From positions 544,001 to 608,000 of the forward strand of contig OZ242351.1 in NCBI GenBank assembly GCA_965208675.1: a stretch of DNA of 64,000 nucleotides, read 5' to 3'. Both the position numbers and the translations under genes were made by a program. This document shows positions 16,863-64,000 of this stretch, in pieces. Source of the DNA: Candidatus Poribacteria bacterium. GTDB lineage: Bacteria; Poribacteria; WGA-4E; PCPOR2b. The notes below the pieces were generated by a model that ran no database searches, was not told where the DNA came from, and was given only the letters and a program-made list of their open reading frames with translations. Positions within the stretch are counted from its first letter, which is position 1. Every line of letters begins with the position of its first letter.

Positions 16863-17002
16863 GTAAAACGAATACCTGCTTGCATTCATAGAACATGTGC
16901 TGGTGAAAGTCGTTTTCCCGTCTTCGTCAATCCGATGGTCCGAAACTATCCATGTGCGAAAACAAAATGAAGGTCGCAGTTTTCCTGTTTTCGCGGCTCG
17001 CA

Positions 17003-17653
17003 TTATTGATTTGCGAACCACATACCTAACATCATTCCTATAGCCATTAAGACGATTATTGTCCCGATAACACCCAGCACAAGCTTCCATGTCATCATTG
17101 CCGATTTTCCTTCTTCCTTTGATTCGCCCCTAGAATTTGGCTCGGCCTTTTCAACTTTTCGCGGCCGATTTTGAGGGCAAGCTCGAATTGAGGCTTGTTC
17201 TTCCCGCATTTCCCTCCGTTGCATTCGAATCTTTTCCACCAATCGCACCGTTTCAGACGCTGGTTCATTGGCTGCACGTGAATTCTGTTCAACCGTATTT
17301 GATTCACGTGAGCCCGCGCCATCGGTATCTGACTTTTGTGAAATGGATTGACTTGAAGATTTATAGGGAAGAATTGCATCATCGGCAAATTCCGAGTCCG
17401 CGCTTAAATGGGCATTTGAACGTGTGTCGTACTCAGGTTCAGCGGGTATCGTAGATTTCACTGCATGGGCTTTTTGATATTGATGGTCAATAGCATCACG
17501 ATTTGGGTTGTCAGTTTCAACCTCGGACTGCGCTAATTCGTCCGCCGCAGATTTATCCGATGTGCCCGATGGACGTTTACCCGCCCACATCGCGCGCCGT
17601 TGTTGTTTATATTTCTCCTTCAGTGCTTGCTTTTCTTCTTCGCTCAACTGCAT
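17003..17653 (-). CDS. Hypothetical protein with a low-complexity body and a C-terminal TM anchor
   Basis: AGGAG RBS; two similar charged motifs (KYKQQRRAMW, KIRMQRREMR); hydrophobic C-terminus. Confidence 0.7.
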   Translation of the reverse strand: MQLSEEEKQALKEKYKQQRRAMWAGKRPSGTSDKSAADELAQSEVETDNPNRDAIDHQYQKAHAVKSTIPAEPEYDTRSNAHLSADSEFADDAILPYKSSSQSISQKSDTDGAGSRESNTVEQNSRAANEPASETVRLVEKIRMQRREMREEQASIRACPQNRPRKVEKAEPNSRGESKEEGKSAMMTWKLVLGVIGTIIVLMAIGMMLGMWFANQ

Positions 17654-41561: not shown

Positions 41562-43118
41562 TTAAGAATCTGACGGTCGGCGGCATTGCCTTTCCGCTAT
41601 CCATAACGTCACGAATGAGAGAAGCGTCGAGATCAAAACCAAGCGATACGCGCTTGCCTCCCAACCGATTGTAAAATAGTTGAATATCGCCAAGGACAAG
41701 GTCTGCGTTTTTCCTGGAATGTTCCCGGCTACCATCATAGTCGCACCGAACTCGCCGAGACTCTTAGAAAAAGCGAGTATTCCGCCACCCACAATACCGC
41801 GATAGGACAAAGGTAGAGTCACGGTGAAAAACACTTTCAATGGGTGCGCACCGAGAGTCCGCGCAGCGCTTTCTAACTTCGGACTCACTCCTTCCATAGC
41901 CGTCACAGCACTTCGGACAAATAGTGGAAATGAAATCACGGAAATCGCGAGTACAACCGCGGCCCACGAGAAGACAACCTCTTTGCCCAATAGTCGGTAT
42001 AAAATGCTTCCAACCGGTCCCGCCCTGCTAAATAGCATCAATAGAAAATACCCGCTTACTACCGGCGGCAGTATTAGGGGCAACATCACAATCGTATTGA
42101 GGAGCGATTTTCCTCGAAACGAGTTTTTCGCCAAAACCCAACTGACGAAAAGTCCGGGCGGGAGAATGAAAATGAGACTGATAATAGCTACTTTGACCGA
42201 TAGAATCAAGGCCTCAACTTCAGCTCTTTTAACGGTCAATAGAAGGTCGGAAGTGCTTACCTCTACGCCTTTATGCACACCATTCGGTACACGCTGGACA
42301 GATTGCGCGATTGAAAAACCATACCTTTCAAATATTTCAGTGGCTTCTGATGTATTTAAGTATGCTAGGAATACCTGCGCCAGTGCTTTATGGTTGGTAG
42401 TTTTCATGATTGCGGCGGGATACACAATTGGACTGTGGCTCGAACTGGGAAATTGATAAATCTCCTTGACCAATTCGCTGATCGCTGCCTCGGTCTTATA
42501 GACTATCCCCAAATCTACTTCACCAGATTCTACATACGCCAATGTAGACCGAACATCTGTACCGATAATTAACTTGGTCTGAACAGATTCCCAAATTCCT
42601 AAACGCGACAAAGCTTCTCTGCCATATATGCCTGCAGGCACCGAATGCGGTTCGCCTATAGCAATACGTTCAATTGGCGGTGCAGCAAGCATCCGTGCAT
42701 CGGAGGCGGAAGTCATGCCGTTCAAAGGGGCAATCAATACAAGACTATTGGTCAAGAGATTTCGGCGTGTATCCTCGTGAACGCGCTTTTCTGTTTGAAG
42801 GGAATCCATTTGCTTGGGGCTGGCGCAAATAAAAATATCTGTGTATGCGCCTTTTTCAATCTGCTGCTGCAAGGTCGATGAACCCGCGAAACTGCAATAT
42901 ATTCGAATTCCAGTCTCCGATTGAAAGCGCTTACTGATTTCAGATAGCGCATCTGTCAAGCTAATTGCTGCAAATACGACTAACTCTCCTTGCCGGGTTG
43001 GCTTTTGTGCCGCCCCACTATCATGTTCGAATTCAAAATGGCTATCGGCTCTGCAACCGGGCGGGAAAAGCCAAAGAAGATTAAGAATTATGAAGACTAC
43101 AACGAGGCGCGAATTCAT
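41562..43118 (-). CDS. modAB: Fused molybdate ABC transporter substrate-binding protein (ModA) and permease (ModB)
   Basis: ModA motifs (VFAAISL, FAGSSTL, N.LVLI, P.SVPAG.Y, VY.T.A, I.YP) run in frame into ModB motifs (LPLILPPVVSG, LE.AARTLGA, F..SLGEFGAT.MVAGNIPG.TQT). Confidence 0.93.
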   Translation of the reverse strand: MNSRLVVVFIILNLLWLFPPGCRADSHFEFEHDSGAAQKPTRQGELVVFAAISLTDALSEISKRFQSETGIRIYCSFAGSSTLQQQIEKGAYTDIFICASPKQMDSLQTEKRVHEDTRRNLLTNSLVLIAPLNGMTSASDARMLAAPPIERIAIGEPHSVPAGIYGREALSRLGIWESVQTKLIIGTDVRSTLAYVESGEVDLGIVYKTEAAISELVKEIYQFPSSSHSPIVYPAAIMKTTNHKALAQVFLAYLNTSEATEIFERYGFSIAQSVQRVPNGVHKGVEVSTSDLLLTVKRAEVEALILSVKVAIISLIFILPPGLFVSWVLAKNSFRGKSLLNTIVMLPLILPPVVSGYFLLMLFSRAGPVGSILYRLLGKEVVFSWAAVVLAISVISFPLFVRSAVTAMEGVSPKLESAARTLGAHPLKVFFTVTLPLSYRGIVGGGILAFSKSLGEFGATMMVAGNIPGKTQTLSLAIFNYFTIGWEASAYRLVLISTLLSFVTLWIAERQCRRPSDS

Positions 43119-43426: not shown

Positions 43427-45100
43427 ATGAAACAGATAATCTTATCCACTGCACTTATCCTTGAGTTTATAATTTTTGACGCCTCGTCATTGCGAGCGCA
43501 ACCTAGGGACACTTCGGCGTGGTGGCTGGTCGTCAGTCCCACTACCGACTATCGTACTCAAAGTTACCTTGATGCACTCGTGGACTTGCTGAAGGAACGG
43601 GGTAAAGTGCCGACCGGACAGGTTTCCCGCCTCGAAGGAGAAAAATGTACGCGCGGAGGCGTGCGGACAGCAATTGCAAATATGGCCAGAAAAATGCAAA
43701 AAGGAGACCGTCTAATTTTTTTATATCGGGGATTTGTTACAAAACCGCACCGATTAAATGCAATCTACTTTTTGACACATGGAGCGACATCCGATAATTA
43801 CAAAAGTGGATTTGAAATTCGGCAATTGAATGATTGGATGCACAAATTGACGGACGCCTCAATGTTAGTCATTATTGACGGTTTTACCAACGATCGAAAC
43901 TTGATGGCGTTTTACGCCAACCGCGAGGCACCTGGAGATGCAGCTTACGTGTCGATTCAGCCGGCAGCGAAAAACGCTGCTCACGAATTTACGAAATATT
44001 TGCTGGTATTCCTTCAAAATGACACAGCGGACCTGGATGAGAATCGGCGAATCTCAATTGGAGAACTCCACGAATATATCACAACCCACGCGCCGCCTCA
44101 ACCAGGAATCCTGGCGCCAACAGGAAACATTGAGGCAACCATCTTGAAATTGAGTCCTATGCTCAGCATCGTTACTATCCCTGACGGCGCGTCAATCCTT
44201 CTCAACGGAATACAATCTGGACCAACGCCTTATCACCTTGTTGACAACCTCAAGGGTGGAATCTATGAAGTCGAAGTACGGAAAGCGGGTTATATAATCC
44301 CTCCTCCTCAATCTACCGAAGTTAAATTGGTTCAAGGTCAGGCAACTCGTCTGTCGTGGGATTTTGAATCAATCGCAGTTTTTGGCGATGTCAAGGCTTC
44401 TGACGGCACTGCCCTTGAGGAAATTAGCGTGTGGATTGACGAGACAGAATACGAGCGAAAGAAGCAAATTATCGGAGAGAATCAACGTTACCGGCTATTT
44501 GCAAACGTCACCAATGTGTCTAGTGATAAGCGGGTTGACACGCAAATACTGGAACCGAACCGGACATATTCCTTGCGTGCCGAGAGTGGTAGTTTCTACC
44601 ACGTAGAAAAGGCCTTCACGCTACCAAGGTATGAATCCACTCGGCAAGATTTAACTCTAGAAAAAATGACTTGGTTTGAGGTTGCCCAGATGCGGTTTAA
44701 TCGTGAGGAATTTGAGGAGTCCGTCGCTGCGTTTCAAAACGGTGTTGAGGAAACAACTGAATTTCCAGCAATTACCCCGGCGTTCACACAGATGCTTTTT
44801 GAATGGTTCTCGTCAGCGGTTGACAGACAAACTGATGAAATTAACGCCGCACACGTACTTGCGGCGGCAAAGTTGGCGGATCGACTTAACCTCCGCGAAC
44901 ATTCCAAGATTTACTGGACGCACGTAAAGTCAATCACCGTGAAAGGAAGCCAGGATTACATTCGTGCAACCGAGCGATTAAGAAATCTGAATATGTCGCG
45001 GTATCTGATTAATATTAGCATCATATTTGTGTTGCTCGTTGTTTTGATATCCGGGGTTTTTACGTTTAGTAGGCATCGCCGTAAAGCCCGTAATGGATAA
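43427..45100 (+). CDS. Signal peptide, caspase-like (peptidase C14-fold) domain lacking His/Cys, PEGA domain, helical region and C-terminal TM anchor
   Basis: L.GEKCTR..V..AI...GDRLIFLYRGF, LVIIDGF, F...LL..L...ADLDENRRISIGEL.EYI. PEGA: T.PDGA.I.LNG...G.TP..L..L..G.Y.VEV.K.GY. Ends in a TM followed by RHRRK. Confidence 0.75.
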   Translation: MKQIILSTALILEFIIFDASSLRAQPRDTSAWWLVVSPTTDYRTQSYLDALVDLLKERGKVPTGQVSRLEGEKCTRGGVRTAIANMARKMQKGDRLIFLYRGFVTKPHRLNAIYFLTHGATSDNYKSGFEIRQLNDWMHKLTDASMLVIIDGFTNDRNLMAFYANREAPGDAAYVSIQPAAKNAAHEFTKYLLVFLQNDTADLDENRRISIGELHEYITTHAPPQPGILAPTGNIEATILKLSPMLSIVTIPDGASILLNGIQSGPTPYHLVDNLKGGIYEVEVRKAGYIIPPPQSTEVKLVQGQATRLSWDFESIAVFGDVKASDGTALEEISVWIDETEYERKKQIIGENQRYRLFANVTNVSSDKRVDTQILEPNRTYSLRAESGSFYHVEKAFTLPRYESTRQDLTLEKMTWFEVAQMRFNREEFEESVAAFQNGVEETTEFPAITPAFTQMLFEWFSSAVDRQTDEINAAHVLAAAKLADRLNLREHSKIYWTHVKSITVKGSQDYIRATERLRNLNMSRYLINISIIFVLLVVLISGVFTFSRHRRKARNG

Positions 45101-45203
45101 TGTTGTTTATGTTCAAATTCTCTTCCTACTCCCTGTTTCCCATGGTCAGGCCATGCCTCTCATTCCTTTACCGGTAGTACGTCGCGGGGGTACCAAATAA
45201 TGC

Positions 45204-45232
45204 TTGAAAACAGTATGAGGCAATGATATAAT
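45204..45232 (+). promoter_or_regulatory. Sigma-70 promoter of the TPR/beta-barrel unit
   Basis: TTGAAA-17-TATAAT. Confidence 0.65.
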
Positions 45233-45262
45233 AGCCTCTGTATTAAGACTGCGGGCTCATGT

Positions 45263-48200
45263 TTGGGGAGCAAAAGAATTGTGTGTTGGTTTAGTAAATT
45301 CCTCACGATTGCCTTTATATTCACGTGGATAGTTTTCCCCGCGAACGCCGGAGAACGCGAGGAATATTCTTTCGCTTACAGTTTCTTTGAAAAGCAGGCT
45401 TACGGCATTGCAAAAGATCGGTTCAAATCCTTCCTTCGGGAATATCCAAATAGTGAAAACGCCGACCATGCTCGCTTTCTAATGGCTGAATGCGCGCTGC
45501 AGCTCAAGGGATATGACGAAGCGATCCAATATTATAAACAGCTTCAAATTGACCATCCGGCTAGTCCACTGCGTATAGATGCAGCGTTTGGCGTAGCGAC
45601 TGCTTGGTTTCGGCAAGGCAAATTTGAAGAAGCCATTAAAGCCTTCGAAAAAGTTATCGAAGAATCACCTGATGAACAACAGATTTCCCAATGTCTTTAT
45701 CTCATTGGAGAGGCTTACGATAATTTAGGTCTTTACCAGAAAGCGGGTGAATTTTACAACCGTATCCTTACAAAATTTCCTAAGTCGTCAAAAGTCAAAG
45801 ATGCACTTTATTCAATGGCCTGGAGTCTTTACCGCCTTAAGAAATATCAAGCCGCCTATGACGTGTTTACACGTTTCATCAACACTTATTCCAATCACTA
45901 CGCTGTTGTAGAGGCCACCTACCGCGCTGCGGAATCGCTTTTCAATTTGGGAGTTTGGGCAGATGCCCAAACCGCATACCAGGATTTTCTCAACACCTAC
46001 GGTAAAGATGACCAACACCGGCAATTCACTATAATTGCTAGGTTTAAGTTGGGTGAGTGCTACTTTCAACAACAGTTGATGAACGAAGCCAAGGAGACGT
46101 TTCAACTTCTTCTACAGGAGCATGGAACATCGCCCATTGCCGTAGAAGCGCAATACTGGATCGCAGAAATACTGTTGGAGCGGGAAAAGTACGCTGAAGC
46201 CATTTATGAATATGGGAAAATTATCAACCTTCATCCTAAGAGCCATGTTGTTGACGACGCCCAGTTTGGGATTGCCATGGCCCATTTTCGCCAAGGGGAC
46301 TATGTCAAAGCGCGGACGCAGTTTAAGGTTGTCGCAGATAATCTACGATCCGATCTCGCGGATGCCGCGCGGTTTCGAATCGGGGAGTGCTTCCGGTTAC
46401 AGCGTGAATTTAATTCTGCAATCCTCAACTATAAGAAAGTGCGCCCCGGATCGTCATATACGCCGGATGCACTTTACGCATTAGGCACAAGCGCGTTTGA
46501 ACTGCGGGATTATTCACAAGCCGCCCTTACTTTCGATGAACTGCTTCAATCTTATGATGCTAACCCGCTTAAACCGTACGCGCTTTACCACTTGGGTTTT
46601 ACCTATTTTTATCAGGAGGAATACCAGCAAAGTGTAGTAGCTTTCGATCGTTTTTTCGGGGAGGCAGGCAGCGTTGAGTTCGAAACTGCCCCACATGATG
46701 AAGCGCTATTCTGGAAAGCCCGAGCACAATATGAACTTGGGAACTATTCGGAAGCAACTCAAACCTTTGAACGGTTGCTTCAAGAGTTTCCAAACTCACG
46801 ACAATCTGAAGCAGAACTTTATATCGCCGAAAGCATCTTTTGGAATCAGCAAAACCAAAGCGGTTTTCAATCTGCACGGGAAAAATACCAGAACCTTCTA
46901 GATAAACACCCGGAGGAGCAATGGGCGGAGAAAAGTCAATATGGAATTGGATGGACCCATTTCTCTCAAGCAACCCTGTCAGTGGAAGAAGCAACGGCTG
47001 CAAAACATTACCATTCAGCTATTGATGCATGGGAGAAAGTTGTCAAAAATCACCCGACCGGTCAATTCGCCGACCAAGCGCAGTACCATATCGGGGTTGC
47101 CCATATTAATCTTAAGCAATACAATGACGCAATTGACGCCTTCCATCTGCTCATTGCGGATTATCCAGGAAGCAACTGGCGCGATGATGCTCGCTATCAC
47201 ACCGGGCAATCGCTGTATAAACAAGAAAAATACGAAAACGCTATCATCGCTTTTGAAAAAATGCTCGAAAGGCATTCAGGATCTCAGTTCGTTCCTAAAG
47301 CGGTTTTTGGTATCGCCAATTCCTATTTTAAGCAGGGGATATTTACGAAAGCTATCGAAAATTACGAACGGGTCGTCAATGAATTTCCAAATCCCATTCC
47401 TGAGCCAGGTACGGAGCAAATAATCGATCTCCGTCCCGAAGCACAATACTACATCGCGGAAAGCTATCTGAGCCTTCGGGATAACTCGGAGGCGATAAAC
47501 GCATACGGTAAGGTGATTCAGCATTTTCCAGGGAGCGAGTGGGCAGATGATGCACAATATGGGGTCGCGTTGGCATTCGAAAACCTAGGGCAGAAAGAGA
47601 AAGCCATACAAGCTTATCGGACACTCATAAAGAGGTACGCAAGCGGCGATCTTGCTCCGGACGCACAAATTAAAATTGCCGGCTTCTACTACCAAGATAA
47701 AGATTATACCCGCGCCATAGCCGAGTATCAAGAAGCAATAAACCGGTATCCGAATACACAAGAATCATGGCTGGCTCAATACAACATTGGAAAATCATAC
47801 ATCGCACTATCGTCTTATCGACAGGCTATAAAGGCTTTTGAACGAGTAGATCCTAGAAGTGATATTGCTGCTACGGCAGCGTACGAAATTGGCTTCGCCT
47901 GGTATGACAAAAAGAACCCAGGGAGGAACCTTGGAAATGCTGCCAATGCGCTGCGCAAGGTTGCTCAAGAATTTCCTAACAACCCTGACGCGCCGCGCGC
48001 TCTATCACTCGCCGGTAAGTGTTATCAGGAGATAGCGGAATGGGACAAGGCGGTTAGCGTGTTTCAGCAGATTATAGACATCTATCCACGTTCGGAGGAT
48101 GCGAATCGGGCACAACTTGAATTAGGAAATACCTATTTCACGCAGGGGAAATACCAAAACGCAGTTGCAGCGTATGATGTTATCCGCAAGAAGGGGACGG

Positions 48201-48547
48201 ACGAATTCCCGATTGATATCGTCATCGACGCTGTGTTGAGACTAGCGGAATCGCAGTTAAGCCTGGGCAATCATAAGGATGGTGCAATTACTTATCTTCG
48301 TATCTCTTTGCTGTACAAGCATTACGATCCCCTCATTACGCTAAATGCAACTGTTCGTGCAGCTAACGCTTTTACGGCTGCCGGCGAGGATTATGTGGCC
48401 AAGGACACCTATGAAGATGCCATTAAATTTTATGAGGCGAATGCTTCAACGATACAGGACTCCAAAACTAGGGACGATTGGGAAAAGTTATACGACACTG
48501 CAATGAAAAAACTAGACCAAATTATCCGTCAAATTGAGCAAGAATGA
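45263..48547 (+). CDS. Large periplasmic TPR protein (CpoB/BamD-like TPR repeats, more than 20 units)
   Basis: Signal peptide followed by continuous A.Y..G..YY....Y..A...F..L...YP.S repeats. Confidence 0.93.
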   Translation: MGSKRIVCWFSKFLTIAFIFTWIVFPANAGEREEYSFAYSFFEKQAYGIAKDRFKSFLREYPNSENADHARFLMAECALQLKGYDEAIQYYKQLQIDHPASPLRIDAAFGVATAWFRQGKFEEAIKAFEKVIEESPDEQQISQCLYLIGEAYDNLGLYQKAGEFYNRILTKFPKSSKVKDALYSMAWSLYRLKKYQAAYDVFTRFINTYSNHYAVVEATYRAAESLFNLGVWADAQTAYQDFLNTYGKDDQHRQFTIIARFKLGECYFQQQLMNEAKETFQLLLQEHGTSPIAVEAQYWIAEILLEREKYAEAIYEYGKIINLHPKSHVVDDAQFGIAMAHFRQGDYVKARTQFKVVADNLRSDLADAARFRIGECFRLQREFNSAILNYKKVRPGSSYTPDALYALGTSAFELRDYSQAALTFDELLQSYDANPLKPYALYHLGFTYFYQEEYQQSVVAFDRFFGEAGSVEFETAPHDEALFWKARAQYELGNYSEATQTFERLLQEFPNSRQSEAELYIAESIFWNQQNQSGFQSAREKYQNLLDKHPEEQWAEKSQYGIGWTHFSQATLSVEEATAAKHYHSAIDAWEKVVKNHPTGQFADQAQYHIGVAHINLKQYNDAIDAFHLLIADYPGSNWRDDARYHTGQSLYKQEKYENAIIAFEKMLERHSGSQFVPKAVFGIANSYFKQGIFTKAIENYERVVNEFPNPIPEPGTEQIIDLRPEAQYYIAESYLSLRDNSEAINAYGKVIQHFPGSEWADDAQYGVALAFENLGQKEKAIQAYRTLIKRYASGDLAPDAQIKIAGFYYQDKDYTRAIAEYQEAINRYPNTQESWLAQYNIGKSYIALSSYRQAIKAFERVDPRSDIAATAAYEIGFAWYDKKNPGRNLGNAANALRKVAQEFPNNPDAPRALSLAGKCYQEIAEWDKAVSVFQQIIDIYPRSEDANRAQLELGNTYFTQGKYQNAVAAYDVIRKKGTDEFPIDIVIDAVLRLAESQLSLGNHKDGAITYLRISLLYKHYDPLITLNATVRAANAFTAAGEDYVAKDTYEDAIKFYEANASTIQDSKTRDDWEKLYDTAMKKLDQIIRQIEQE

Positions 48548-48591
48548 GTAAAAACCGCGATCCCAAGACCAAGTCGATATGAGACAAACCT

Positions 48592-50310
48592 ATGCCCCGA
48601 TTGTTATTCACAATATTCTGGGTTAGCCTGTTCGTGGTCGGGATATCGTTTCTTTACGCTGAGGAGCCGGAAAAAAACCAAGACGTGGATGTGGACGCGA
48701 CGGAAGATCAATTGGAAGCAGATTTGCCAGAGGTCATTCGTGCGAAAATGATTGACACGACACGCATCCTACTTGAGCCGCGCAGTCGCTTTAGCGACCC
48801 TTTAAAGCCGAAATTAATTAGCGCTAAGGGAATATACGCGAAGGAACGCCTATGGAATTTATCTCCGACTTCGATACCGCAAAAAGCAGTTGCTCCGCAG
48901 GCCGCACAACCAAAAACCCACGTAGTAAATTTCACGGCGTATCCAAGTTTACCTGATTCGCTCTATTACCATGCACTTTTTGGAGCACACAACAACCGAT
49001 CGCGGGGATTCCTTTACCTAGATGGTAAACAGCTTGGTGACAAGCGTACAAAGCAAAAGGGGGACTATAACTTCAATAGTGTTCGAGGCGAGTTGAGTTA
49101 TCAGCATCAAGATTGGCGCGAAATTTCTCTTGATGTTGGTCTCGACCTCAAAGGCCTGAATTGGCTACCAGCACCTAACTCTCAAGAACAAGAAAAATTG
49201 CGGAAGGATTTTAGATTACTTAGATCCGCGATAAACTGGAAACAACAGATTGCAGCATCGGCATGGACGACGCTTACGCTTGGCGCAGAATCAATGAGTC
49301 TGACGCATGACGCATCAGATCAACAGGGTGAGGGCACCGATCTTCGTTTCAATTTCGACGCAACGGTTCTGCTGCCTTTTCAGAATCCGTTTCATGCAGG
49401 TGACACGGTAGATGTGAATCCAATTCACGTTGGAAGCGGCATTGAATACTATTCCATAAATGACAGCGGGAAACCCGATTACTGGGCGGCAATCATACGT
49501 TTATATGTGCGGGATGAGTTTACGCTTTTTGGACCGTTAGCGTTAAGCATGGGAGCGGAGGGGGTCAATTTTCGTGAACGGAATGAAAGTGGTGAAGATC
49601 TGACGAGATTACAATTTAATCCGAACCTTGCAGTTACGACCAAACTAGGTAGACGGTGGATTTTTCGTATGCATGGTATGCGGACGACACACCAACCCAA
49701 ATTGTCGTCACTTTATTTCGAAACGGATTATATCAGCTTTAATCCTTTCCTCGGGCCGGAAGAGACTTGGGACGGACGAGTGCTGTTGAAATACCATCAA
49801 GGCAGAATGTTAGAAATCAATCTTACAGGTTTTGCAAAGCACATTGATGATTTAGTTGTTTTTGAAAAAGAAACTGATAACCCGAACGCGCTAACGTGGA
49901 TGCCGACGAACATTGACGCACGAATTTATGGCGGACAACTCGATTTCTCAGCGCAAGTCACCAATCAGCTCGAGCTACAGTTGCAATACATCCATGAATT
50001 TCACCGCCCAAAGCAAGCAGAAAACATAAATTACAGACCCGAAGATTTAGTGAATTTAGGGGTTGATTTTTATTTTTCAGGCGATTTTCGATTTGAACTA
50101 GATGGAGTATTTAGTGGTCCTCGTTATGCAAAAACAGATGAAACTTTGGAACGCTATTTCCGGTTCAAGCCAAGGCTGAGCAAAACCATAGGGACATACA
50201 TAGATGCGTTCATCGGCTGCACATTCGCCATTGGTGAGTATGCCGTGCTTCATCAAGACCTTACATTTTCACAGAACAACTTTGATTTTGGCGTAGAATT
50301 AAGATTCTAA
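48592..50310 (+). CDS. Outer-membrane beta-barrel protein (TonB-dependent-receptor-like barrel, no recognisable plug)
   Basis: Signal peptide; amphipathic beta-strands; NPFL.PE motif typical of TBDR barrels; C-terminal FGVELRF beta-signal. Confidence 0.75.
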   Translation: MPRLLFTIFWVSLFVVGISFLYAEEPEKNQDVDVDATEDQLEADLPEVIRAKMIDTTRILLEPRSRFSDPLKPKLISAKGIYAKERLWNLSPTSIPQKAVAPQAAQPKTHVVNFTAYPSLPDSLYYHALFGAHNNRSRGFLYLDGKQLGDKRTKQKGDYNFNSVRGELSYQHQDWREISLDVGLDLKGLNWLPAPNSQEQEKLRKDFRLLRSAINWKQQIAASAWTTLTLGAESMSLTHDASDQQGEGTDLRFNFDATVLLPFQNPFHAGDTVDVNPIHVGSGIEYYSINDSGKPDYWAAIIRLYVRDEFTLFGPLALSMGAEGVNFRERNESGEDLTRLQFNPNLAVTTKLGRRWIFRMHGMRTTHQPKLSSLYFETDYISFNPFLGPEETWDGRVLLKYHQGRMLEINLTGFAKHIDDLVVFEKETDNPNALTWMPTNIDARIYGGQLDFSAQVTNQLELQLQYIHEFHRPKQAENINYRPEDLVNLGVDFYFSGDFRFELDGVFSGPRYAKTDETLERYFRFKPRLSKTIGTYIDAFIGCTFAIGEYAVLHQDLTFSQNNFDFGVELRF

Positions 50311-50616
50311 CGAGTAATGTGATTATTGCCGCGAGAGCCTCCACGGTTTATTTGAAAACAGATGGAATTGGGCCGATAAGGTAGATTATAATTCGGGCGT
50401 TATTCCGCAATATGATTTGCTCATGATAAAGTGGGGTGCAGATTAATTGATTTATCATAAAAGCGGAACTTTAACAGCTGTGAAGGGATGTAAGATGGCA
50501 GAAATTTTTGTATGAAACGGAAGACGTGACTGTTCACGCAGTTGGGTTTTTGGTTTTCACAGAAATTACGTGAACCGTCGCCGCGCCGTATTTCATTTAA
50601 TCGCTTCAATTTGTCT

Positions 50617-51300
50617 ATGGGTCAGCTTGTTCATATTATTCTTTCGGGGTTAGGGCAATTAAGCGAAGGGGGCCTAATTTTAATTCCACTAGTTGCCTTT
50701 TCGCTTTGTTCGCACACAATTATTTTGGAGCGCGCGTATCACCTTCGTCGCAGACGGATAATTCCTTCACACTTTGTAACGCGCAGCATTTACAACGAGT
50801 TAGTCCAAGGCAATCCAAAAATAGCCGTTAAGATGTGTGAGAAAAAACCGGGGCCCTTGACAAACATTCTTCGAGCAGGTATTGAACATCGGGATTCAGG
50901 GGAAGATACAATTAAACGGGCAATTCGAATCGCAATAAATACGGAAAAGCGTATTTTAACAAGATACCTTAACTTTTTGGGTCTGCTGGCTTCGGTGTCT
51001 CTTTATACTGGTTTACTTGGCACGGTCGTCGGCATGATACACTCGTTCGGCGCATTATACGTTGGGAAACCAACTGATATTGCTGTTGGTATTTCACAAG
51101 CTCTACTAACCACCGCAGCAGGGCTGATTGTCGCATTGCCCGCTTATGTGGCGAATGATTATTTTCGAAGCAAGTCCCAAAACTTCGTGATAGCGCTCGA
51201 AAGGCACGGGATGTCGCTGGTTCGATTTCTTACTACCGAGGAACACAAAATATTCCAGGGCGAGTTTGAAGACATTCGAGTAATCAAGGAGAATGGTTGA
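50617..51300 (+). CDS. MotA/TolQ/ExbB proton channel family protein
   Basis: GLLGTVVGMI.SF, GISQALLTTAAGL.VA.PA. Confidence 0.93.
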   Translation: MGQLVHIILSGLGQLSEGGLILIPLVAFSLCSHTIILERAYHLRRRRIIPSHFVTRSIYNELVQGNPKIAVKMCEKKPGPLTNILRAGIEHRDSGEDTIKRAIRIAINTEKRILTRYLNFLGLLASVSLYTGLLGTVVGMIHSFGALYVGKPTDIAVGISQALLTTAAGLIVALPAYVANDYFRSKSQNFVIALERHGMSLVRFLTTEEHKIFQGEFEDIRVIKENG

Positions 51301-52199
51301 TGACCAAGAGGCGAAGCGAAGTTCGGATGGCAGTATTTTTGGCGATTGCCATTGTTGAGCATGTGATATTTATTCTTGTTTTGGCGACAGTAGTTTATAC
51401 TGAACCAGTGCCAAAACCTGATCGCCCAATAACAGTGGACATTGTGCCCAATGTGCTACCGCAGGAAAAGCGAATTTTGGATGATAAACCCGTTGCATCC
51501 ATGCCCGTGCAACCTCTGGTGCAAGATGATTTACCCCCGCTTCGCTTTACACATAACCGCCAAGAGTATCTAATTCCTTCGGACCTCAATGATAGGTTGC
51601 CGGAAACGCACCAAAAACGGTTAGCCAATCCGAAATCCGATCGATTTTCTTTGGAGATTGCACGCCCTCAAGGCAACAAGCGAGATTTAGTTGATAATTC
51701 TCCAAACACTATTGTTCGAGCGAAGCCGCTTGTTAAAACGCCCGGATTTCATGGACCGGAACCCCGAAAACTACCAAAAGCAGATGGGGGGAAATTCACA
51801 CGAGGAGCAAGAGAACAAAATTCCATAGGGAGACTCCCAGCAAAGAGTTCGATAGACACCCGAATCAGTCGGATCGAGGGCAGCGGAGGAGACGGAAATA
51901 TCCGTATCTCTGGCGAAGTAGGCGGGAGAAAGTATCGACTGCCGTCCGCTATTCAAACAGAAGGCAAACAAGGTGGAAGTATTCAACTCAGTTTCAAGGT
52001 GAAGCCCGATGGAACTGTTGATAACAACAGCGTACGAATCGAATTCGGTCCGAAAACGACAGTCGGAGAAGTCCGCTTAAAAAGAAAAGCAATACGATAT
52101 CTCGTAGGAATTCGATTTGCAGCCCTTCCCAAAAACGTAGCGCAAGTTAATCAATCTGGTGAGATATTCATCGAATTTTCAACACAATCAAGCCAATAG
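51300..52199 (+). CDS. TonB/TolA-like energy transducer
   Basis: N-terminal TM with His (AIVEHV), Pro-rich linker, C-terminal TonB_C-like domain (G.I.L.FKVKPDG.V...A......F..LP....Q..Q.G.I.I.F); start overlaps the exbB stop (TGATG). Confidence 0.75.
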   Translation: MTKRRSEVRMAVFLAIAIVEHVIFILVLATVVYTEPVPKPDRPITVDIVPNVLPQEKRILDDKPVASMPVQPLVQDDLPPLRFTHNRQEYLIPSDLNDRLPETHQKRLANPKSDRFSLEIARPQGNKRDLVDNSPNTIVRAKPLVKTPGFHGPEPRKLPKADGGKFTRGAREQNSIGRLPAKSSIDTRISRIEGSGGDGNIRISGEVGGRKYRLPSAIQTEGKQGGSIQLSFKVKPDGTVDNNSVRIEFGPKTTVGEVRLKRKAIRYLVGIRFAALPKNVAQVNQSGEIFIEFSTQSSQ

Positions 52200-52676
52200 G
52201 ATTCTCGGTAAGTCATGTCATTCCCAGAGTTGGCGGGAGATTGACAGCGCTTTATTACGAAAATTTTGAATCGTTGCGCGTGCTGACGGGCTTTTTGACA
52301 ATTTGTGTACGTTTTGAATGGCACATTAATGTTACAATCTACATTCCGATGCACGGTTCAAACCATCTTAATCGAATTTGTTAATCAATCGGGGTAATTT
52401 CGCATTATAAACCTACGAAGAATGGGAGATTGTCCTATACAATCCTGACCCATTGGATTGTCATTTACAAGTTGAAAAACCATGCCGCAATTTTTTCAAT
52501 GAAATACCCTGCCTCAACACTTTTTTAAATGATGAAGATCGAGCAAGAGTTTAGCGAGTGCGAATATTTTTCGTCTTTGGAACGCCTTCGCCTTCGTTAT
52601 TCACTCTGTTGATTGCAAAGCGTCTAGAGTCTTAATTCCTCAATTTGTCAACTTTACAATAAAAAGGAGAAACAAA

Positions 52677-54059
52677 ATGAATCGCTTGAAATCCCTTTGC
52701 CCATACCTTGCACTCGCTAGCTTGGCTGCAATCGTTGTTGGGTGCGCCGGCGGAATGAGCGGTATTGTACCCCTGAGTGCGAAAATACAAAACGCCGACC
52801 GCAAACTTGCGGAGGCGGAGCAAGTTCAAATTAAAGGTGACACCAAAGAAGAAAAAGCAATAATTGAAGCAGAAAAGAACGAGCTCTACGATGATGCGCT
52901 TCGGCGATACTTGGAAATTATCGAGGCAGCGCCTCAAGGAAAATATGCACAGCGAGCGCATTTCCAAGTGGCTGAAATTTACAAAAAACGTTATGATTGG
53001 GATAGTTCAGTACAGCATTTTCAAGCAATCGTAGATCTGTCCCCAACGGGTTATTATGCTAGCCGGGCGAAGAGTGGGATTGCTGACATTCGCAAGAACC
53101 GTCGAATCATTCAAGAAAAACGGCGAATCTATCAAAACCGCCGCCTTCTCGAAGACGACGAAAGCCAGACTTTAGCTGCGAAAGCACTGTATGATGTCGC
53201 GAAGGCTTATGAAACGATTGGCAACTATCCGGAGGCGGTCGACAATTATGAGAAACTAATCGCTGAATTCCCAGGATATAAGTTGACGCCGCAAGTGCAG
53301 TTCCAAATTGGCAACATCTATTTTTATAGGCTGCACGATTATTCAAACTCTGGAGGTTGGGGCGCATTTGTGAACGTTATCGAAGCCTATCCCGAGTCAT
53401 TCGAGGCGCGTGAAGCAGAGACTCTTTTGAAGAAGTCTAGCCGAACCCTTACCCAGATAGCCCAAGAAATGGAGCTCATCGAATCCTATAAAAATAAGAA
53501 GGCGTTTGACTATCGTGACACAGGCCGATATGTACCATCTACTGAATTATGGAAGATGGGTTACTCCGACCATGCTGTCCAGGCGTATCAGGAAGTCGCC
53601 CGCGGCTGGGAAAAAATGAGGAACTATACATTTGCAATCGCCGCTTACGACAAACTGGTAGAGTATATATCTCACAGAAAGTTTGCGGTCGCTGATGCAT
53701 TATTTCAAACGGGGGTTTTGTACCAGAAAAACGGAGAACTCGAACGGGCAATTGATGCATACCACCGGTTATTTGAAAAAGCACCGGAATCAACCTGGCG
53801 TGCTGAAGCGGTATATAACCAAGCCGTCTGTTTTCAGTCCATCCGTGAGTTCAACGAAGCGTATAGGGGGTTCAAGGCTTACATGAGCCTCGGCGATGAT
53901 GGTAAGTATTACCGTGAAGCGGAACAGCGAGTTCGTCAGTTTGAACTTGATCAGGATGGCGATGGATATAAGTTTTACAAAGAGCAGGAAGCTGGAACAT
54001 CCGATCAAAACGCGGACGATTTTCCTGGGGCACAGCAGCCCGCGGCGAGCGGCATGTAA
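52677..54059 (+). CDS. TPR lipoprotein with a C-terminal TSP3-like Ca-binding motif
   Basis: Lipobox IVVGC; TPR repeats; DQDGDGY....E..AGT......D.PG tail; AGGAG RBS. Confidence 0.85.
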   Translation: MNRLKSLCPYLALASLAAIVVGCAGGMSGIVPLSAKIQNADRKLAEAEQVQIKGDTKEEKAIIEAEKNELYDDALRRYLEIIEAAPQGKYAQRAHFQVAEIYKKRYDWDSSVQHFQAIVDLSPTGYYASRAKSGIADIRKNRRIIQEKRRIYQNRRLLEDDESQTLAAKALYDVAKAYETIGNYPEAVDNYEKLIAEFPGYKLTPQVQFQIGNIYFYRLHDYSNSGGWGAFVNVIEAYPESFEAREAETLLKKSSRTLTQIAQEMELIESYKNKKAFDYRDTGRYVPSTELWKMGYSDHAVQAYQEVARGWEKMRNYTFAIAAYDKLVEYISHRKFAVADALFQTGVLYQKNGELERAIDAYHRLFEKAPESTWRAEAVYNQAVCFQSIREFNEAYRGFKAYMSLGDDGKYYREAEQRVRQFELDQDGDGYKFYKEQEAGTSDQNADDFPGAQQPAASGM

Positions 54060-57286: not shown

Positions 57287-58966
57287 CTACTCCCGAGTCA
57301 AAATAATCGTATCAATCCGACGGTTTTTGTCTCTGCCAGCTTTATTTTCGTTGCTCTGAATTGGAAATTCTTCGCCTAAACCAATAGATGTTATTCGTTC
57401 ACTAGGCACCCCACCATCTTCCGATAGATATTTGGCAAAGGTTTTCGCTCGGTTCTCCGTCAACCTGAGATTGGTGTCGGTTTTTCCAACGTCGTCGCTG
57501 TGTGCTTCTACATGGACAGGGAACTGGGCAAATGTATGAAGAATCTCAGCCAGTTTAAGAAGCATTGGGAAATATTTTGGATTAATTTCCGTGCTTCCCA
57601 TCTCGAAGATATTCCCGCTTAAACGCACAAGCACACCTTTTTCCGTTTTTTGGGAATCTGCCGCGGAAATTTCATTTGTTGCGTTAAGAATGTTTGTTTC
57701 AACGGCTTCAATCTGCTTGGCTTTTTCGATGGCATTGGTTAACGTCTCTAGGCTTTGATTTCCTAAGGAAATGGCGCGTACATAATTAGCGTTAGACAAA
57801 GCGGATTTGGCTTGTGCAATCAGTTCAATCGCCTTCTCGTACGATTCGGATGCAAGGTTTGGAGTCTCCGTTACCCTTGTTTGGTTAATGCTTTCCTCCG
57901 CCTTAAATATTGTGTCTTTGGCTTTGGCAATTTTTTCTTCCATCGCTTCTTTAGCAGATTGCGCGCGATCTATAGCTTCGGCGGCAGTATACGCTTCATG
58001 CCCAACACTTTCAGCCTGTGCAGCCAACTGCAACGCCGCCTTATACTCTTCCGTTTTCAATGCTAGATTCGCTCGTTCAAGCGTTGTTTTCGCTCGATTA
58101 AAAAGCGTCTGAGCGTGTGCAAACGCATTGACACTTTCTGCCCTATCTATCTCAATTTGTGCACGAGTTATAGCGACTTTTGCGTCTGCGTAATCTTCAA
58201 GCTTCATTAATCCTGCGGCCTGTGCTCCCACGCGCGCAGCAGTTCGAGAATCTTTTGCATGCTCCTCTGCTTTTACAGCCGCTGCTTTGGCTTCATCGAA
58301 CTTCTCTTGTACCAACAAGGAATGTGCTTGTTTGATGAGGTTCTCAGCCGCTTGAAAACTATCACCATCAAAGTTAAGCGCTCCTTCAGTCCTAGCGGCA
58401 TCAATAACAAGCTGTGCTTTTCCAATCGCCAATTGCGTTTGTGCGTTGAGTCGGGCGTTCTTCGCGTCCCGCCTCGCTGTGCCGGCTTCAGCTTGGGCGA
58501 TTGCCATGCGTTGTTCGGCATTCTCCGCTCTGGATAAGGCACGCCTCTCACGTCCTTCCGCCATTGTCCGCAGAGTTTGTGCCGTCTGAACTTTGTACTC
58601 CAATTCTTGAGCTAATGCCTTCAACATATCCTCGCGAACCTGACTTATTCGCTTTTGCGCAATTTTCTGGCGTGTTACCGCGCCAGCTACCCGCGCTTCT
58701 GTCTGAGCTTGAAATGCTAATTCTAAACTTTGTACACTGTTGCCTTCCTGCCGAGCCTGCTTCGAATCCTCAAATAATTTTACCGCATTAGCAAACTTTT
58801 CGCGTGCATATTCTTCAGCTCCCAAATGTCGCGTGTTAGAAATGAAACTCTGCGCATCATTTAAACTCATGTCTAGCAGGGCCGGATCGATTTTTTCCGC
58901 ACAGCCGATTCCGCCTCCAAAAATTGTGATAAAACTGTGCAACCATAATATTCCTTTCGATTGCAT
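57287..58966 (-). CDS. Lipoprotein with several DUF4398-like helical repeats and a C-terminal OmpA/Pal-like peptidoglycan-binding domain
   Basis: Lipobox GIGC; repeated A..YA...F..A...L..A units; HSD..G....N..L...RA and P...N....GR..NRR.D motifs. Confidence 0.88.
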   Translation of the reverse strand: MQSKGILWLHSFITIFGGGIGCAEKIDPALLDMSLNDAQSFISNTRHLGAEEYAREKFANAVKLFEDSKQARQEGNSVQSLELAFQAQTEARVAGAVTRQKIAQKRISQVREDMLKALAQELEYKVQTAQTLRTMAEGRERRALSRAENAEQRMAIAQAEAGTARRDAKNARLNAQTQLAIGKAQLVIDAARTEGALNFDGDSFQAAENLIKQAHSLLVQEKFDEAKAAAVKAEEHAKDSRTAARVGAQAAGLMKLEDYADAKVAITRAQIEIDRAESVNAFAHAQTLFNRAKTTLERANLALKTEEYKAALQLAAQAESVGHEAYTAAEAIDRAQSAKEAMEEKIAKAKDTIFKAEESINQTRVTETPNLASESYEKAIELIAQAKSALSNANYVRAISLGNQSLETLTNAIEKAKQIEAVETNILNATNEISAADSQKTEKGVLVRLSGNIFEMGSTEINPKYFPMLLKLAEILHTFAQFPVHVEAHSDDVGKTDTNLRLTENRAKTFAKYLSEDGGVPSERITSIGLGEEFPIQSNENKAGRDKNRRIDTIILTRE

Positions 58967-59038
58967 GTATACTACGCCTCCAAAATCAGGATTCCTAAGC
59001 TCAAGAGTGCGCGGATTTCACCCTTACATTTTCGTGTT

Positions 59039-59464
59039 TCAATTTTCAGGTGTTGTATTAAAGCGTTCTAGTTCCATATTCGCCTGCTCTAACTCGCGCT
59101 TTGCCTTTTCCGTAGCCTGTATATTCAATTCCAATCTTTTTTCCATATTACGGGCTTTCTCTTCGATCGTTTGTGCTATGGATATTGATTCCGCTAATTT
59201 GCCTGTGAGATGTGCACGCCTTCCTAACCTATATGCTTCTTCCGTGTTTCCGTTGTGCAATGCCGATTCTGCTTCAGTGAGCATCTGAGCGGCTTTTCCG
59301 TACGTTTCCGCAGCTAGATTTTGTGCATCAGTTGCTTGTGCAGCGAGAATCTGCGCTTTTGCATCCTGAATAACGCTCTCCGCGTAGCCGCTCGCCATAC
59401 CGCACCCAACACTCACCACAATGACAACCCAACTGAAACCTGCCATTGCTAACCGCTGAATCAT
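59039..59464 (-). CDS. DUF4398-like lipoprotein
   Basis: Lipobox SVGC; A...I.AA....A...A...Y..A...L..AE. Start probably the ATG at 59464. Confidence 0.8.
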   Translation of the reverse strand: MIQRLAMAGFSWVVIVVSVGCGMASGYAESVIQDAKAQILAAQATDAQNLAAETYGKAAQMLTEAESALHNGNTEEAYRLGRRAHLTGKLAESISIAQTIEEKARNMEKRLELNIQATEKAKRELEQANMELERFNTTPEN

Positions 59465-59580
59465 ATAATTTCGCGCCGTGACAATTAAGTGCATTATGTT
59501 TTTACGAAGCATGCCCATTAAGTGTAGTAGTTGTATGGCAAGCGCGCCGTACAAATTATTTGATACTAGACCGTAACTAT

Positions 59581-59934
59581 TCAATTTCGCCCATTCAGCC
59601 ATTTCCTTGAGTGCTCGCTGAATAACTTCTCAAGATGGTACATATTTTTCTTGAAAAGAATTGTTTCTTCCCAACCAATAATGACCGGCACCCAAGCTAT
59701 TCCTACGGAGATAACGAGCATCAATCCGGCGGGCAAGAATATGAAATGTGTTCAGAACGGTAACCCGATATACGTCATTTTTTGGTAAACGGTATGGCTC
59801 TAGCCGACTAAGAAAATCGTTGTGCTGACACTACTTGCATCTGTCACGGCATTAGCTATCTCAAAGCATCTAATTTGTATTTTGCCTAAACTGCGCGATT
59901 GAATTAGATTGTCGGTGATGAGTATGGAATACAT
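59581..59934 (-). pseudogene. Possible decayed isoprenylcysteine carboxyl methyltransferase (ICMT/PEMT)-family gene
   Basis: Fragments across frames with stops: LV..., PYR, MTYIG, a hydrophobic stretch, IIGWEETIL, RKWL. Confidence 0.3.
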
Positions 59935-63193: not shown

Positions 63194-64000
63194 ATGAGTC
63201 GAAACGACTTTATCGTGTTTTGGGTCGTTAATTTGCTACTTCCTTGTACCATTCAGGTTTTTGGGCAAGTAGGGTCAAGCGAAGTCCCGCAAGCCGAGAA
63301 TGAGTCCGCATTATACGAGTCGCCGCCAGGATTGGAAGAGGCAACCCTCCAGCAAACTAACCTTTCCGGAGTTGGATTAACCGTCATCAACGAAGATCCG
63401 TTCTTCCGAATGCAGTTGCAACCGGAGGTCAACCTTGGCAAAATTGGGTTTGGGTTGGGTATCGTGGTTTTGTACAATCCAAGCGCAGAAAAGGACGAGG
63501 ATAAAGTCTTTACTGAGGATGCTGAGAACTGGGACAATCCCAGTTCCTATCTGCGAACCGTCCGGTATGTGCGCTATGGACACCTCGGCGATTCGTTCTA
63601 CACCCGATTCGGTGAATTGGACTACGTCACTATTGCGTATGGATTCATCATGTCCGGATATTCCAACCACGATCGGCGTGGATTGCGCCTGAACCTAAGC
63701 AATGACACTAAGAAATACGGTGTAGAGACTGTCATAAACAACGTCCAAAATCCGACAGTGTTCGGTGGGAGGACATACATTCGTCCACTGCAGAAAGAGC
63801 ATGAGTCGGCAATCCTCAACCGTCTGGAATTCGGGGGTACTTATCTGACTGATATTGACCCATCATGGGGCAATCAGAATGAAGATCCGCTCGTGGCGTT
63901 AGGTGTGGATGTCGGACTCCCGATAATTCACAACAGGCTGATGCGGGTAAACTTGTACGATGAAGTTGCCTTCCTCAATACGAAACCGACTTCAGATTCA
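63194..64000 (+). CDS. Secreted or outer-membrane beta-rich protein, truncated by the window end (absent from the ORF track)
   Basis: ATG at 63194 with a signal-like N-terminus; the frame continues toward the window end with amphipathic strands (RMQLQPEVNLGKIGFGLG, VRYVRYG...FYTRFGELD..TI.YG.IM.GYSN). Confidence 0.7.
   Translation, partial: MSRNDFIVFWVVNLLLPCTIQVFGQVGSSEVPQAENESALYESPPGLEEATLQQTNLSGVGLTVINEDPFFRMQLQPEVNLGKIGFGLGIVVLYNPSAEKDEDKVFTEDAENWDNPSSYLRTVRYVRYGHLGDSFYTRFGELDYVTIAYGFIMSGYSNHDRRGLRLNLSNDTKKYGVETVINNVQNPTVFGGRTYIRPLQKEHESAILNRLEFGGTYLTDIDPSWGNQNEDPLVALGVDVGLPIIHNRLMRVNLYDEVAFLNTKPTSDS

Follow-up and report, generated by a model that had tools for sequence, protein, structure and literature searches.

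The window analysed here, by which we mean the whole stretch of 64,000 nt from Candidatus Poribacteria bacterium (GCA_965208675.1, OZ242351.1 positions 544,001-608,000, forward strand), carries six + strand open reading frames between 43427 and 54059 at exactly the positions given in a preliminary description, so that the gene set is real. The first (43427..45100, +; 557 aa, PEGA family match) encodes a pseudo-caspase. It is followed by a sigma-70-type promoter-like site (45204..45232, +; 11/12 consensus, extended -10), where the core unit starts, and then by genes for a giant TPR protein (45263..48547, +; 1094 aa, TPR family match), a barrel (48592..50310, +; 572 aa, TBDT barrel PF00593 with E 1e-13), an ExbB/TolQ-family protein (ORF 50542-51300, +, likely start ATG 50617; MotA_ExbB E 1e-27), a TonB-like protein (ORF 51297-52199, +, ATG 51300; TonB_C E 0.002) and a TPR lipoprotein (52677..54059, +; 460 aa, TPR family match). 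The overlap described between the ExbB and TonB-like genes was found again, the ATG at 51300 sharing one base with the ExbB stop, and the gaps given as about 300 and 480 bp proved to be 306 bp, counted from the barrel gene to ATG 50617, and 477 bp.

Gene order and the extent of the core

Conservation was followed in 33 loci found via one barrel motif; because of this selection by a single motif and because many are close relatives, the loci are not independent. The preliminary description had proposed a synteny check across relatives, and the order of the five genes from the giant TPR to the lipoprotein holds down to 27% barrel identity, with varying flanks. The giant TPR gene adjoins the barrel gene in 31/31 testable loci, the barrel gene adjoins exbB in 32/32, exbB adjoins the TonB-like gene in 31/32, and the latter adjoins the lipoprotein gene in 31/31. 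In 22 of 32 loci no more than 35 bp lie between barrel and exbB, and in 30 of 32 the exbB and TonB-like reading frames overlap. A near-consensus sigma-70-like promoter of constitutive look, scoring 11/12, lies upstream of the giant TPR gene in 24/30 loci, a score of 11 being reached by none of 150 coding windows used as a control, and the same scan of the loci showed no promoter-like site of equal strength upstream of exbB. The lipoprotein gene is tightly linked to the core, yet a 12/12 promoter-like site of its own lies upstream in many relatives (17/31 loci); the scan listed none in the 477-bp gap of the window. A terminator scan gave sites that were rarer than in shuffled sequence.

Of 30 testable loci, 25 carry the pseudo-caspase gene and 5 do not, and in only 3 of the 25 does it directly adjoin the giant TPR gene. 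Since a promoter-like site separates the two, the pseudo-caspase lies outside the core, and we regard it as an associated gene; of the six-gene system originally proposed, five genes stand as the conserved core while the pseudo-caspase, rarely adjacent and beyond the conserved promoter, does not. Its product has an exported caspase-fold domain, after which come PEGA, Ig-like and TPR-like parts, with a membrane helix at the C-terminus. Foldseek matched the fold to MALT1 (E 1.5e-9), legumain and metacaspase; Pfam gave a caspase match in 0/16 members, and an hhalign comparison with a single caspase stayed below significance (prob 3). The fold is common to active caspases and metacaspases (clan CD), from which the protein differs in missing the His-Cys dyad: judged from motifs without superposition, the dyad positions lack His in 25 of 26 parsed members, with Phe, Gln or Arg instead, and Cys in all 26, with Tyr, Phe, Ile or another residue instead.

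As reported before, the cluster contains no ExbD/TolR, TolB or Pal gene, and none was found among the conserved neighbours; an OmpA-like gene lies nearby in only 4/33 loci. Among the neighbours in the 33 loci, no gene conserved next to the core is of a substrate-binding, SusD-like or catabolic kind. A comparison of the window barrel with a plasmid collection gave no match.

The barrel, the giant TPR protein and their Bacteroidales counterparts

The AlphaFold2 model of the barrel (pLDDT 83) has 22 strands, as counted from DSSP elements, and aligns with the BtuB structure with Z 22.7 and rmsd 3.3 over 392 aligned residues, the match beginning only at BtuB residue 135. In Pfam the window barrel matches PF00593 without a plug match, and the Plug family (PF07715) was detected in 0/26 relatives versus 9/9 controls. 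An ordinary plugged receptor had been considered as the alternative outcome of modelling; the model shows no plug, although at least 9 plugged TBDTs stood among the 107 aligned rows. As modelled, the barrel is a complete 22-strand BtuB-like TBDT barrel without a canonical plug, and it descends from BtuB/Cir-like importers.

In place of the plug lies a conserved N-terminal segment of about 66 residues (residues 44-109; 48721..48918, +), 64-67 aa long in 20/20 relatives. The N-terminus is Pro-rich as described (10% Pro in residues 24-109 versus 4% in the barrel). The segment begins with a strand that is conserved in the alignments and putatively TonB-box-like, a likeness judged by eye with no tool match, followed by two conserved motifs with column conservation of 0.60 and 0.76 versus 0.46 in the barrel, and its pLDDT in the AlphaFold2 model is 40-55. 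We regard it as a candidate mini-plug or handle. A complex prediction for the barrel (24-572) with the C-terminal domain of the TonB-like protein (196-300) scored 0.00 in two runs without folded controls, and this score is not counted as evidence either way.

The giant TPR protein is periplasmic and has a single N-terminal hydrophobic segment. No SprA translocon, PorV or PorKLMN was found in the cluster, where the PorW/SprE model reached 142 bits against a cut-off of 250.

The preliminary description had mentioned a large-TPR and atypical-barrel pair in Bacteroidota, and such a counterpart does exist in Bacteroidales, where a TPR protein of ~1000 aa and a short 'TonB-dependent receptor' are encoded in the same order and with similar sizes. 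The barrel of this pair has no plug and has 68-70 residues from the box to the first strand, and the TPR protein is colinear with the giant TPR over 761 alignment columns. The pair differs from that of Poribacteria in that no motor genes or TPR lipoprotein adjoin it in 3/3 records and in that barrel identity is about 12%; the N-terminal segments failed to align. The Bacteroidales barrels scored 37-53 bits on a plugged-TBDT profile versus 20-31 bits on a plug-less one, and a search against the PDB found no relative of them. A profile search with the plug-less barrels returned nearly only the same close relatives, and one with distant barrels returned 3 close matches and 22 others, 21 of them plugged. 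In the barrel tree, where the labels 'pori' and 'other' were assigned in this analysis, the split between plugged and plug-less barrels has support of 93/89 and is not starred. A common origin of the Bacteroidales and Poribacteria barrels is only moderately supported.

In B. thetaiotaomicron, BT2816 (TPR) and BT2817 would be the orthologues of the giant TPR and the barrel; BT0900/BT0901 was also considered as the counterpart pair and rejected, its TPR protein having only ~400 aa. BT2816 (signal peptidase I) and BT2817 co-fractionate and are enriched in the outer membrane, with log LFQ values of 10.5 and 10.6 there and 9.3 and 9.2 in the inner membrane (PMC6222051). Their cofitness is 0.80, which may be a polar effect, and they have common defects of -1.2 to -1.7 in 350 mM NaCl, on heparin and on arabinogalactan (PMC8121099). 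A candidate motor trio, BT3919-BT3921, is missing from the cofitness table with BT2816/BT2817, and for BT3919 itself the phenotype differs (doxycycline, -3.7) (PMC8121099). Given the profile scores, the unstarred split and the unalignable N-termini, the Bacteroides data may not transfer to Poribacteria. In the accessible part of the literature, PG1651 appears only in a vesicle listing.

The motor subunit, its transducer and the lipoprotein

The ExbB protein reads SLYTGLLGT as described, and the Pro before GLLGT, the TM2 Pro (Pro141 position), is absent in 33/33 sequences. The conserved TM1 Trp (E. coli Trp38 position) is replaced by His in all 33; the pore threonines and the TM3 Pro are kept in all 33, and the TM1 Ser (Ser29) is kept as well. 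The Asn to which the ExbD N-terminus binds in E. coli survives in only 1/33. The best NCBIfam score is with TolQ, at 92 bits against a cut-off of 221. The transmembrane helix of the TonB-like protein carries A-x2-E-H (codons 51357-51362), with Glu-His in 33/33; the Ser of the E. coli Ser-x3-His is Ala in all 33, and the His is kept. The residues by which the E. coli motor contacts TonB or TolA, taken from the accessible sections of PMC12215075, map to the kept Ser and His and to the Trp-to-His change. The alignment thus indicates that the canonical contact of the TM1 Ser/Trp with the TonB Ser-x3-His is altered in a conserved way.

After the transmembrane helix the TonB-like protein has a D-box (51429-51446), a linker and a TonB-type C-terminal domain. 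The D-box pattern, as defined in the available part of PMC10907165, falls at His+23 to +25 in 31/33 sequences versus 17/162 other linker windows. Of 5 relatives scanned, 3 matched TonB_C above its cut-off and 1 gave a weak TonB_2 match, and the top 10 matches in a PDB profile search were all TonB, though weak. Six-frame translations of the window and the 33 loci contained no ExbD-like ORF (best E 0.22), and Pfam found no ExbD among 81 neighbour proteins. Because the D-box for ExbD binding is retained, an ExbD encoded away from the cluster is likely. The TPR lipoprotein has Cys23 and, in the alignment, an invariant acidic C-terminal motif.

Possible roles of the five-gene core

The proposal of a distinct, conserved trans-envelope set is borne out by comparison with known systems. 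The core shares with the Ton system the 22-strand barrel, the TonB-type C-terminal domain, the transmembrane His, the D-box, the ExbB pore threonines and the TM3 Pro, but it has the ~66-residue segment instead of a canonical plug, His at the Trp38 position and no Pro at the Pro141 position of ExbB, a Glu before the TonB-like His, no linked exbD, and the giant TPR and TPR lipoprotein as fixed partners. With Tol-Pal it has in common a TolQ-like motor, CpoB/YbgF-like TPRs, a housekeeping look and, in the inferred Bacteroides orthologues, envelope-type phenotypes, whereas tolR, tolB and pal are missing, the transducer domain is TonB-like and the outer-membrane partner is a barrel. Our literature search, with subscription papers and bioRxiv supplements largely outside its coverage, met no description of the five-gene system.

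We tentatively favour, with somewhat less than even confidence, an undescribed Ton-derived, pmf-driven machine for outer-membrane upkeep rather than for the import of a single small nutrient. In the arrangement that we infer, down to its contacts, substrate and direction, the motor would be a pentamer of the variant ExbB, joined probably by an ExbD from elsewhere in the genome, and the TonB-like helix would bind the ExbB side through ExbB Ser29/His33 and its own Glu21/His22. The TonB-like C-terminal domain would grip the box at the N-terminus of the plug-reduced barrel and pull on the ~66-residue segment, which at other times would close the barrel or tether it, with the giant TPR docked beneath the barrel as a scaffold or conduit and the lipoprotein as an accessory; the task might be to move or release some large component of the envelope there, or to put tension between the membranes.

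A plug is generally regarded as necessary for TBDT barrels, and a fixed Ser/Trp-Ser/His contact as the rule for ExbB/TolQ motors; the Poribacteria set deviates on both counts, and the deviations are conserved. The uncharacterised BT2816/BT2817 pair, annotated as an ordinary receptor, would thereby be tied to a motor, and this link opens the question to experiment in a tractable commensal. Bacteroidota are without canonical Tol-Pal (PMC12204202), and Poribacteria, in the portion of PMC3909097 available, have sorting-domain cargo without a known exporter; the machine might fill either gap.

An atypical importer is unlikely. In this reading a large nutrient, a polysaccharide or polypeptide, would enter through the barrel, the short segment would suffice as a gate, and the polymer would pass to the giant TPR. 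The BtuB/Cir-like ancestry of the barrel, the TonB-type transducer domain and the impaired growth of the B. theta mutants on heparin and arabinogalactan (PMC8121099) speak for it, but those defects are mild and span two unrelated polysaccharides, salt stress and aspartate (PMC8121099), the core lacks a conserved neighbour of substrate-binding, SusD-like or catabolic type, and the promoter looks constitutive. Among the points against the upkeep reading are that an importer would equally account for the two common B. theta defects seen with polysaccharides, and that the Bacteroidales pair stands without motor genes alongside. The absence of motor genes there, the top NCBIfam score of ExbB and a Poribacteria-labelled MAG with tolA in a split operon and 'TolQR assumed elsewhere' (PMC12204202 supplement) would also suit two unrelated modules under one promoter: ExbB as TolQ in a split Tol-Pal, or as a general motor, and a TPR-barrel pair that works independently. 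We find this rather improbable, as translation couples ExbB to a transducer of its own, with a domain that by eye is unlike the TolA sequences of that supplement, the interface residues of the two proteins change jointly, and barrel and exbB adjoin in 32/32 loci. Gliding, a further suggestion of the preliminary description, is scarcely plausible. The Agl-Glt machine likewise combines a motor with a TonB-C protein, a large TPR and a TPR lipoprotein (AglR, GltG, GltD of 1191 aa and GltE of 471 aa, in the accessible part of PMC3169522), but the GltC and GltE models reached only 64 and 28 bits on the giant TPR against cut-offs of 450 and 225, neither was among the lipoprotein's 13 matched families, AglQ/S and an FHA domain are missing, and the barrel is TBDT-like, not OmpA-like.

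That the motor needs no ExbD, the invariant TonB-like Glu21 carrying the proton itself inside the ExbB pore, is very doubtful. The Glu-His pair in 33/33, the flanks without ExbD, the kept pore threonines, the lost TM2 Pro and the rarely kept ExbD-binding Asn would fit, and there is a precedent in the trans-pore vWA transducers proposed for lone tolQ genes (PMC12204202, section 8), where a linked exbD is likewise missing and the partner helix likewise bears an acidic residue. Those transducers are, however, said to be without SHLS residues (PMC12204202), and the Poribacteria transducer is TonB-type rather than vWA, is a single gene and keeps the His motif and the D-box, the latter in 31/33; the His with a small residue four earlier fits the side-binding motif, Ser29 is kept, and the new ExbB His33 is a possible side-site partner for the Glu. 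Export of T9SS-like C-terminal sorting-domain proteins, threaded along the TPR and out via the barrel, is also quite improbable. A TPR, an open barrel and a motor fit such a route anatomically, and Slam, AlgK/AlgE and PgaA are TPR and barrel exporters; TonB-type domains, though, are known for an inward pull, and a similar pair is present in Bacteroides, which for the most part are not known to have T9SS cargo. Poribacterial single-cell genomes have many TIGR04183-like domains and no Por secretion genes in the available part of PMC3909097, although these genomes are partial. A broader version, decidedly unlikely, would make the plug-reduced barrel and the ~1000-residue TPR conduit a widespread, as yet undescribed, pmf-driven class for energised protein export or surface assembly, serving T9SS-like cargo in Poribacteria through a rewired, possibly ExbD-less motor with the Glu-His helix as proton carrier. 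The window itself encodes a cargo-like protein (13575-17090) with a dockerin and a C-terminal domain resembling a sorting domain.

The core unit and its surroundings

The six co-oriented open reading frames of the preliminary description were found in the window (43427-54059), and in gene order their products match the Pfam models PEGA, TPR, TBDT barrel without plug, MotA_ExbB, TonB_C (weakly) and TPR. They encode a pseudo-caspase, a giant TPR protein (1094 aa), a barrel (572 aa; closest named relative at 78% identity, in Ca. Poribacteria), ExbB, a TonB-like transducer and a TPR lipoprotein. ATG 50617 is the probable start of ExbB, whose stop codon shares one base with the start ATG of the TonB-like gene. 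When GTDB genomes were scanned once with a barrel motif, 44 stretches matched and 33 loci were confirmed (29 titled Poribacteria, 4 "uncultured bacterium"); the motif is biased to Poribacteria-type barrels and close relatives are numerous in this sample. The proposed linkage held up, core gene order being kept at barrel identities as low as 27%: the giant TPR adjoins the barrel in 31/31 testable loci, the barrel adjoins ExbB in 32/32, and the TonB-like gene adjoins the lipoprotein gene in 31/31. ExbB adjoins the TonB-like gene in 31 of 32 loci, the sole break being an inserted DUF4058 gene (L025:2632-3432, in a locus from the genome scan). As a unit, the cluster is real and conserved.

A sigma-70-type site scoring 11 of 12 lies ahead of the giant TPR, both in the window and in 24/30 loci; 0/150 coding control windows reach this score. 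In 32 loci no such site upstream of ExbB scores above 10; the lipoprotein is preceded by a 12-of-12 site in 17/31. All of these are matches to consensus, not mapped transcripts. Adjacency counts and the distribution of promoter-like sites together indicate that giant TPR, barrel, ExbB and TonB-like gene form the core unit, with the lipoprotein linked but often apparently under its own promoter. The lipoprotein cysteine is invariant, as is its Asp/Glu-rich tail (residues 425-443, window 53949-54005), which surpasses most of the TPR body in conservation. The tail resembles a calcium-binding TSP3 repeat and is a possible calcium site.

The pseudo-caspase (43427-45100, +), previously counted as a member of the system, did not hold that place. 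It lies upstream in 25 loci, with 5 lacking it and 3 untestable, and it directly adjoins the giant TPR in only 3 of the 25; in the other 22 (L004-L007, L009-L023, L030-L032; e.g. L016:5107-6105) a gene for a 310-350-aa protein that weakly matches DisA/DAC (diadenylate cyclase-like), missing from the window's lineage, sits between them. The pseudo-caspase itself has the fold of clan CD, with a membrane helix at its C-terminus, and a motif-based search found no dyad residues in it. Unlike the core adjacencies, the outer flanks differ among loci; a divergent TolC/HlyD efflux pair upstream in 15-18 loci (e.g. L019:1345-2673, L032:15147-17228) and NAD synthetase downstream in 7 are lineage-specific neighbours. 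Elsewhere in the window, 41562-43118 (-) encodes a ModA-ModB-like fusion of a molybdate-type binding protein with its own ABC permease, and two DUF4398 genes lie at 57287-59602 (-), in one of which the DUF4398 part is joined to a long helical stretch and an OmpA-like peptidoglycan-binding domain; such genes are close to the cluster in only 4/33 loci. An open-ended ORF at 63194-64000 (+) weakly matches Leptospira ImpL63 (E 0.0014).

The plug-less barrel and its look-alikes

The absence of a plug was borne out: the AlphaFold2 model has 22 strands across residues 110-571 (mean pLDDT 83) and lacks a folded plug, residues 22-105 being mostly below pLDDT 50, from an alignment that held at least nine plugged TBDTs, and the Plug model matches 0/26 short relatives against 9/9 controls. 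Foldseek and VIA-align of this model retrieved TBDTs, the best being BtuB (Z 22.7), whose alignment begins only at BtuB residue 135. The segment in place of the plug (residues 44-109) is 64-67 aa long in 20/20 relatives and contains two motifs more conserved than the barrel, so that it is no decayed remnant. Conserved Arg/Lys in the segment, together with conserved acidic residues for which a lumen-facing position is predicted, would be in keeping with a small plug; the low pLDDT of the segment may come from a shallow alignment.

The complete set of 50%-identity representatives was scanned and gave 58 hits, including short plug-less barrels and ordinary plugged TBDTs. Atlas look-alikes, which serve as leads only, were unnamed 479-596-aa clusters from Spirochaetota, Bacteroidota and Rhodothermota for the barrel and TonB-family clusters of Bacteroidota for the transducer. 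The giant TPR matched 3 of 72,556 plasmid records at E <=1e-10, each from Bacteroidales, and every one has a plug-less "TonB-dependent receptor" of 540-594 aa directly after the TPR gene, in agreement with the similar pair described for Bacteroidota; the flanks of the Bacteroidales pair contain no motor genes. The PLSDB plasmid entries with loci L034, L035 and L039 (TSDC17.2 strains) contain topA, argS and recG and resemble pieces of a chromosome. Profile comparison of Poribacteria with Bacteroidales gave a probability of 95.8 for the barrels, covering the barrel part only, and a colinear match of 761 columns for the TPRs, whose repeats align easily. In a 47-barrel tree, the 27 plug-less rows fell on one side (support 93/89, not starred). 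The Bacteroidales barrels score higher with the plugged than with the plug-less profile, which speaks against common ancestry.

The motor

In E. coli, TonB Ser16/His20 touch ExbB Ser34/Trp38 and TolA His22 touches TolQ Ser28/Trp32 (PMC12215075). Window ExbB Ser29 and His33 align with TolQ Ser28 and Trp32, and Ser and His occupy these positions in 33/33 sequences, in all of which the two pore threonines and the Pro of TM3 are retained and the Pro of TM2 is missing. A-x-x-E-H is the pattern of the transducer helix in 33/33 sequences; in the simplest reading of this pattern, the Glu-His pair would lie at the usual side site and confer partner specificity. The transducer also keeps, at His+23 to +25, the ExbD-binding D-box pattern (PMC10907165), in 31/33 sequences against 17/162 control windows, and an ExbD is therefore to be expected. 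No ExbD was found in the neighbourhood of the cluster. A motor working without ExbD, in which the transducer Glu acts across the pore, has a precedent proposed in section 8 of PMC12204202 and is compatible with any functional reading; we give it a slim chance. Apart from the Bacteroidales pair, an exbB-exbD-"tolA" trio gave the strongest of the 4 weak hits with the transducer profile (E 0.055).

Phenotypes and possible function

We take BT2816 (TPR) and BT2817 (barrel) as the presumed B. thetaiotaomicron orthologues by annotation, adjacency, a primer start and gene order. On fractionation both are enriched with the outer membrane, BT2816 although its signal is type I (PMC6222051). Their cofitness is 0.80, which polarity could explain, and neither is in the essential-gene table; mutants of both are impaired on arabinogalactan, on heparin and in 350 mM NaCl, with an additional aspartate defect for BT2817 (PMC8121099). 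The candidate motor trio BT3919-BT3921 does not appear in the cofitness table of that source, and a TonB deletion study (10.1101/2023.07.07.548152) omitted BT3921.

In its parts the cluster works like a Ton system, but its barrel falls outside the TBDT family because it has no plug, and the cluster as a whole belongs neither to Tol-Pal nor to Agl-Glt (PMC3169522). We tentatively rank a machine for outer-membrane upkeep as the most likely reading, at somewhat under an even chance. An atypical importer is unlikely, and two co-regulated modules are distinctly so. That the cluster exports cargo (compare PMC3909097) is improbable. In the literature searched, no account of such a system was found. 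The window also encodes, at 13575-17090 (-), a 1171-aa protein with a dockerin and a C-terminal domain resembling the T9SS-type sorting domain described in Poribacteria.
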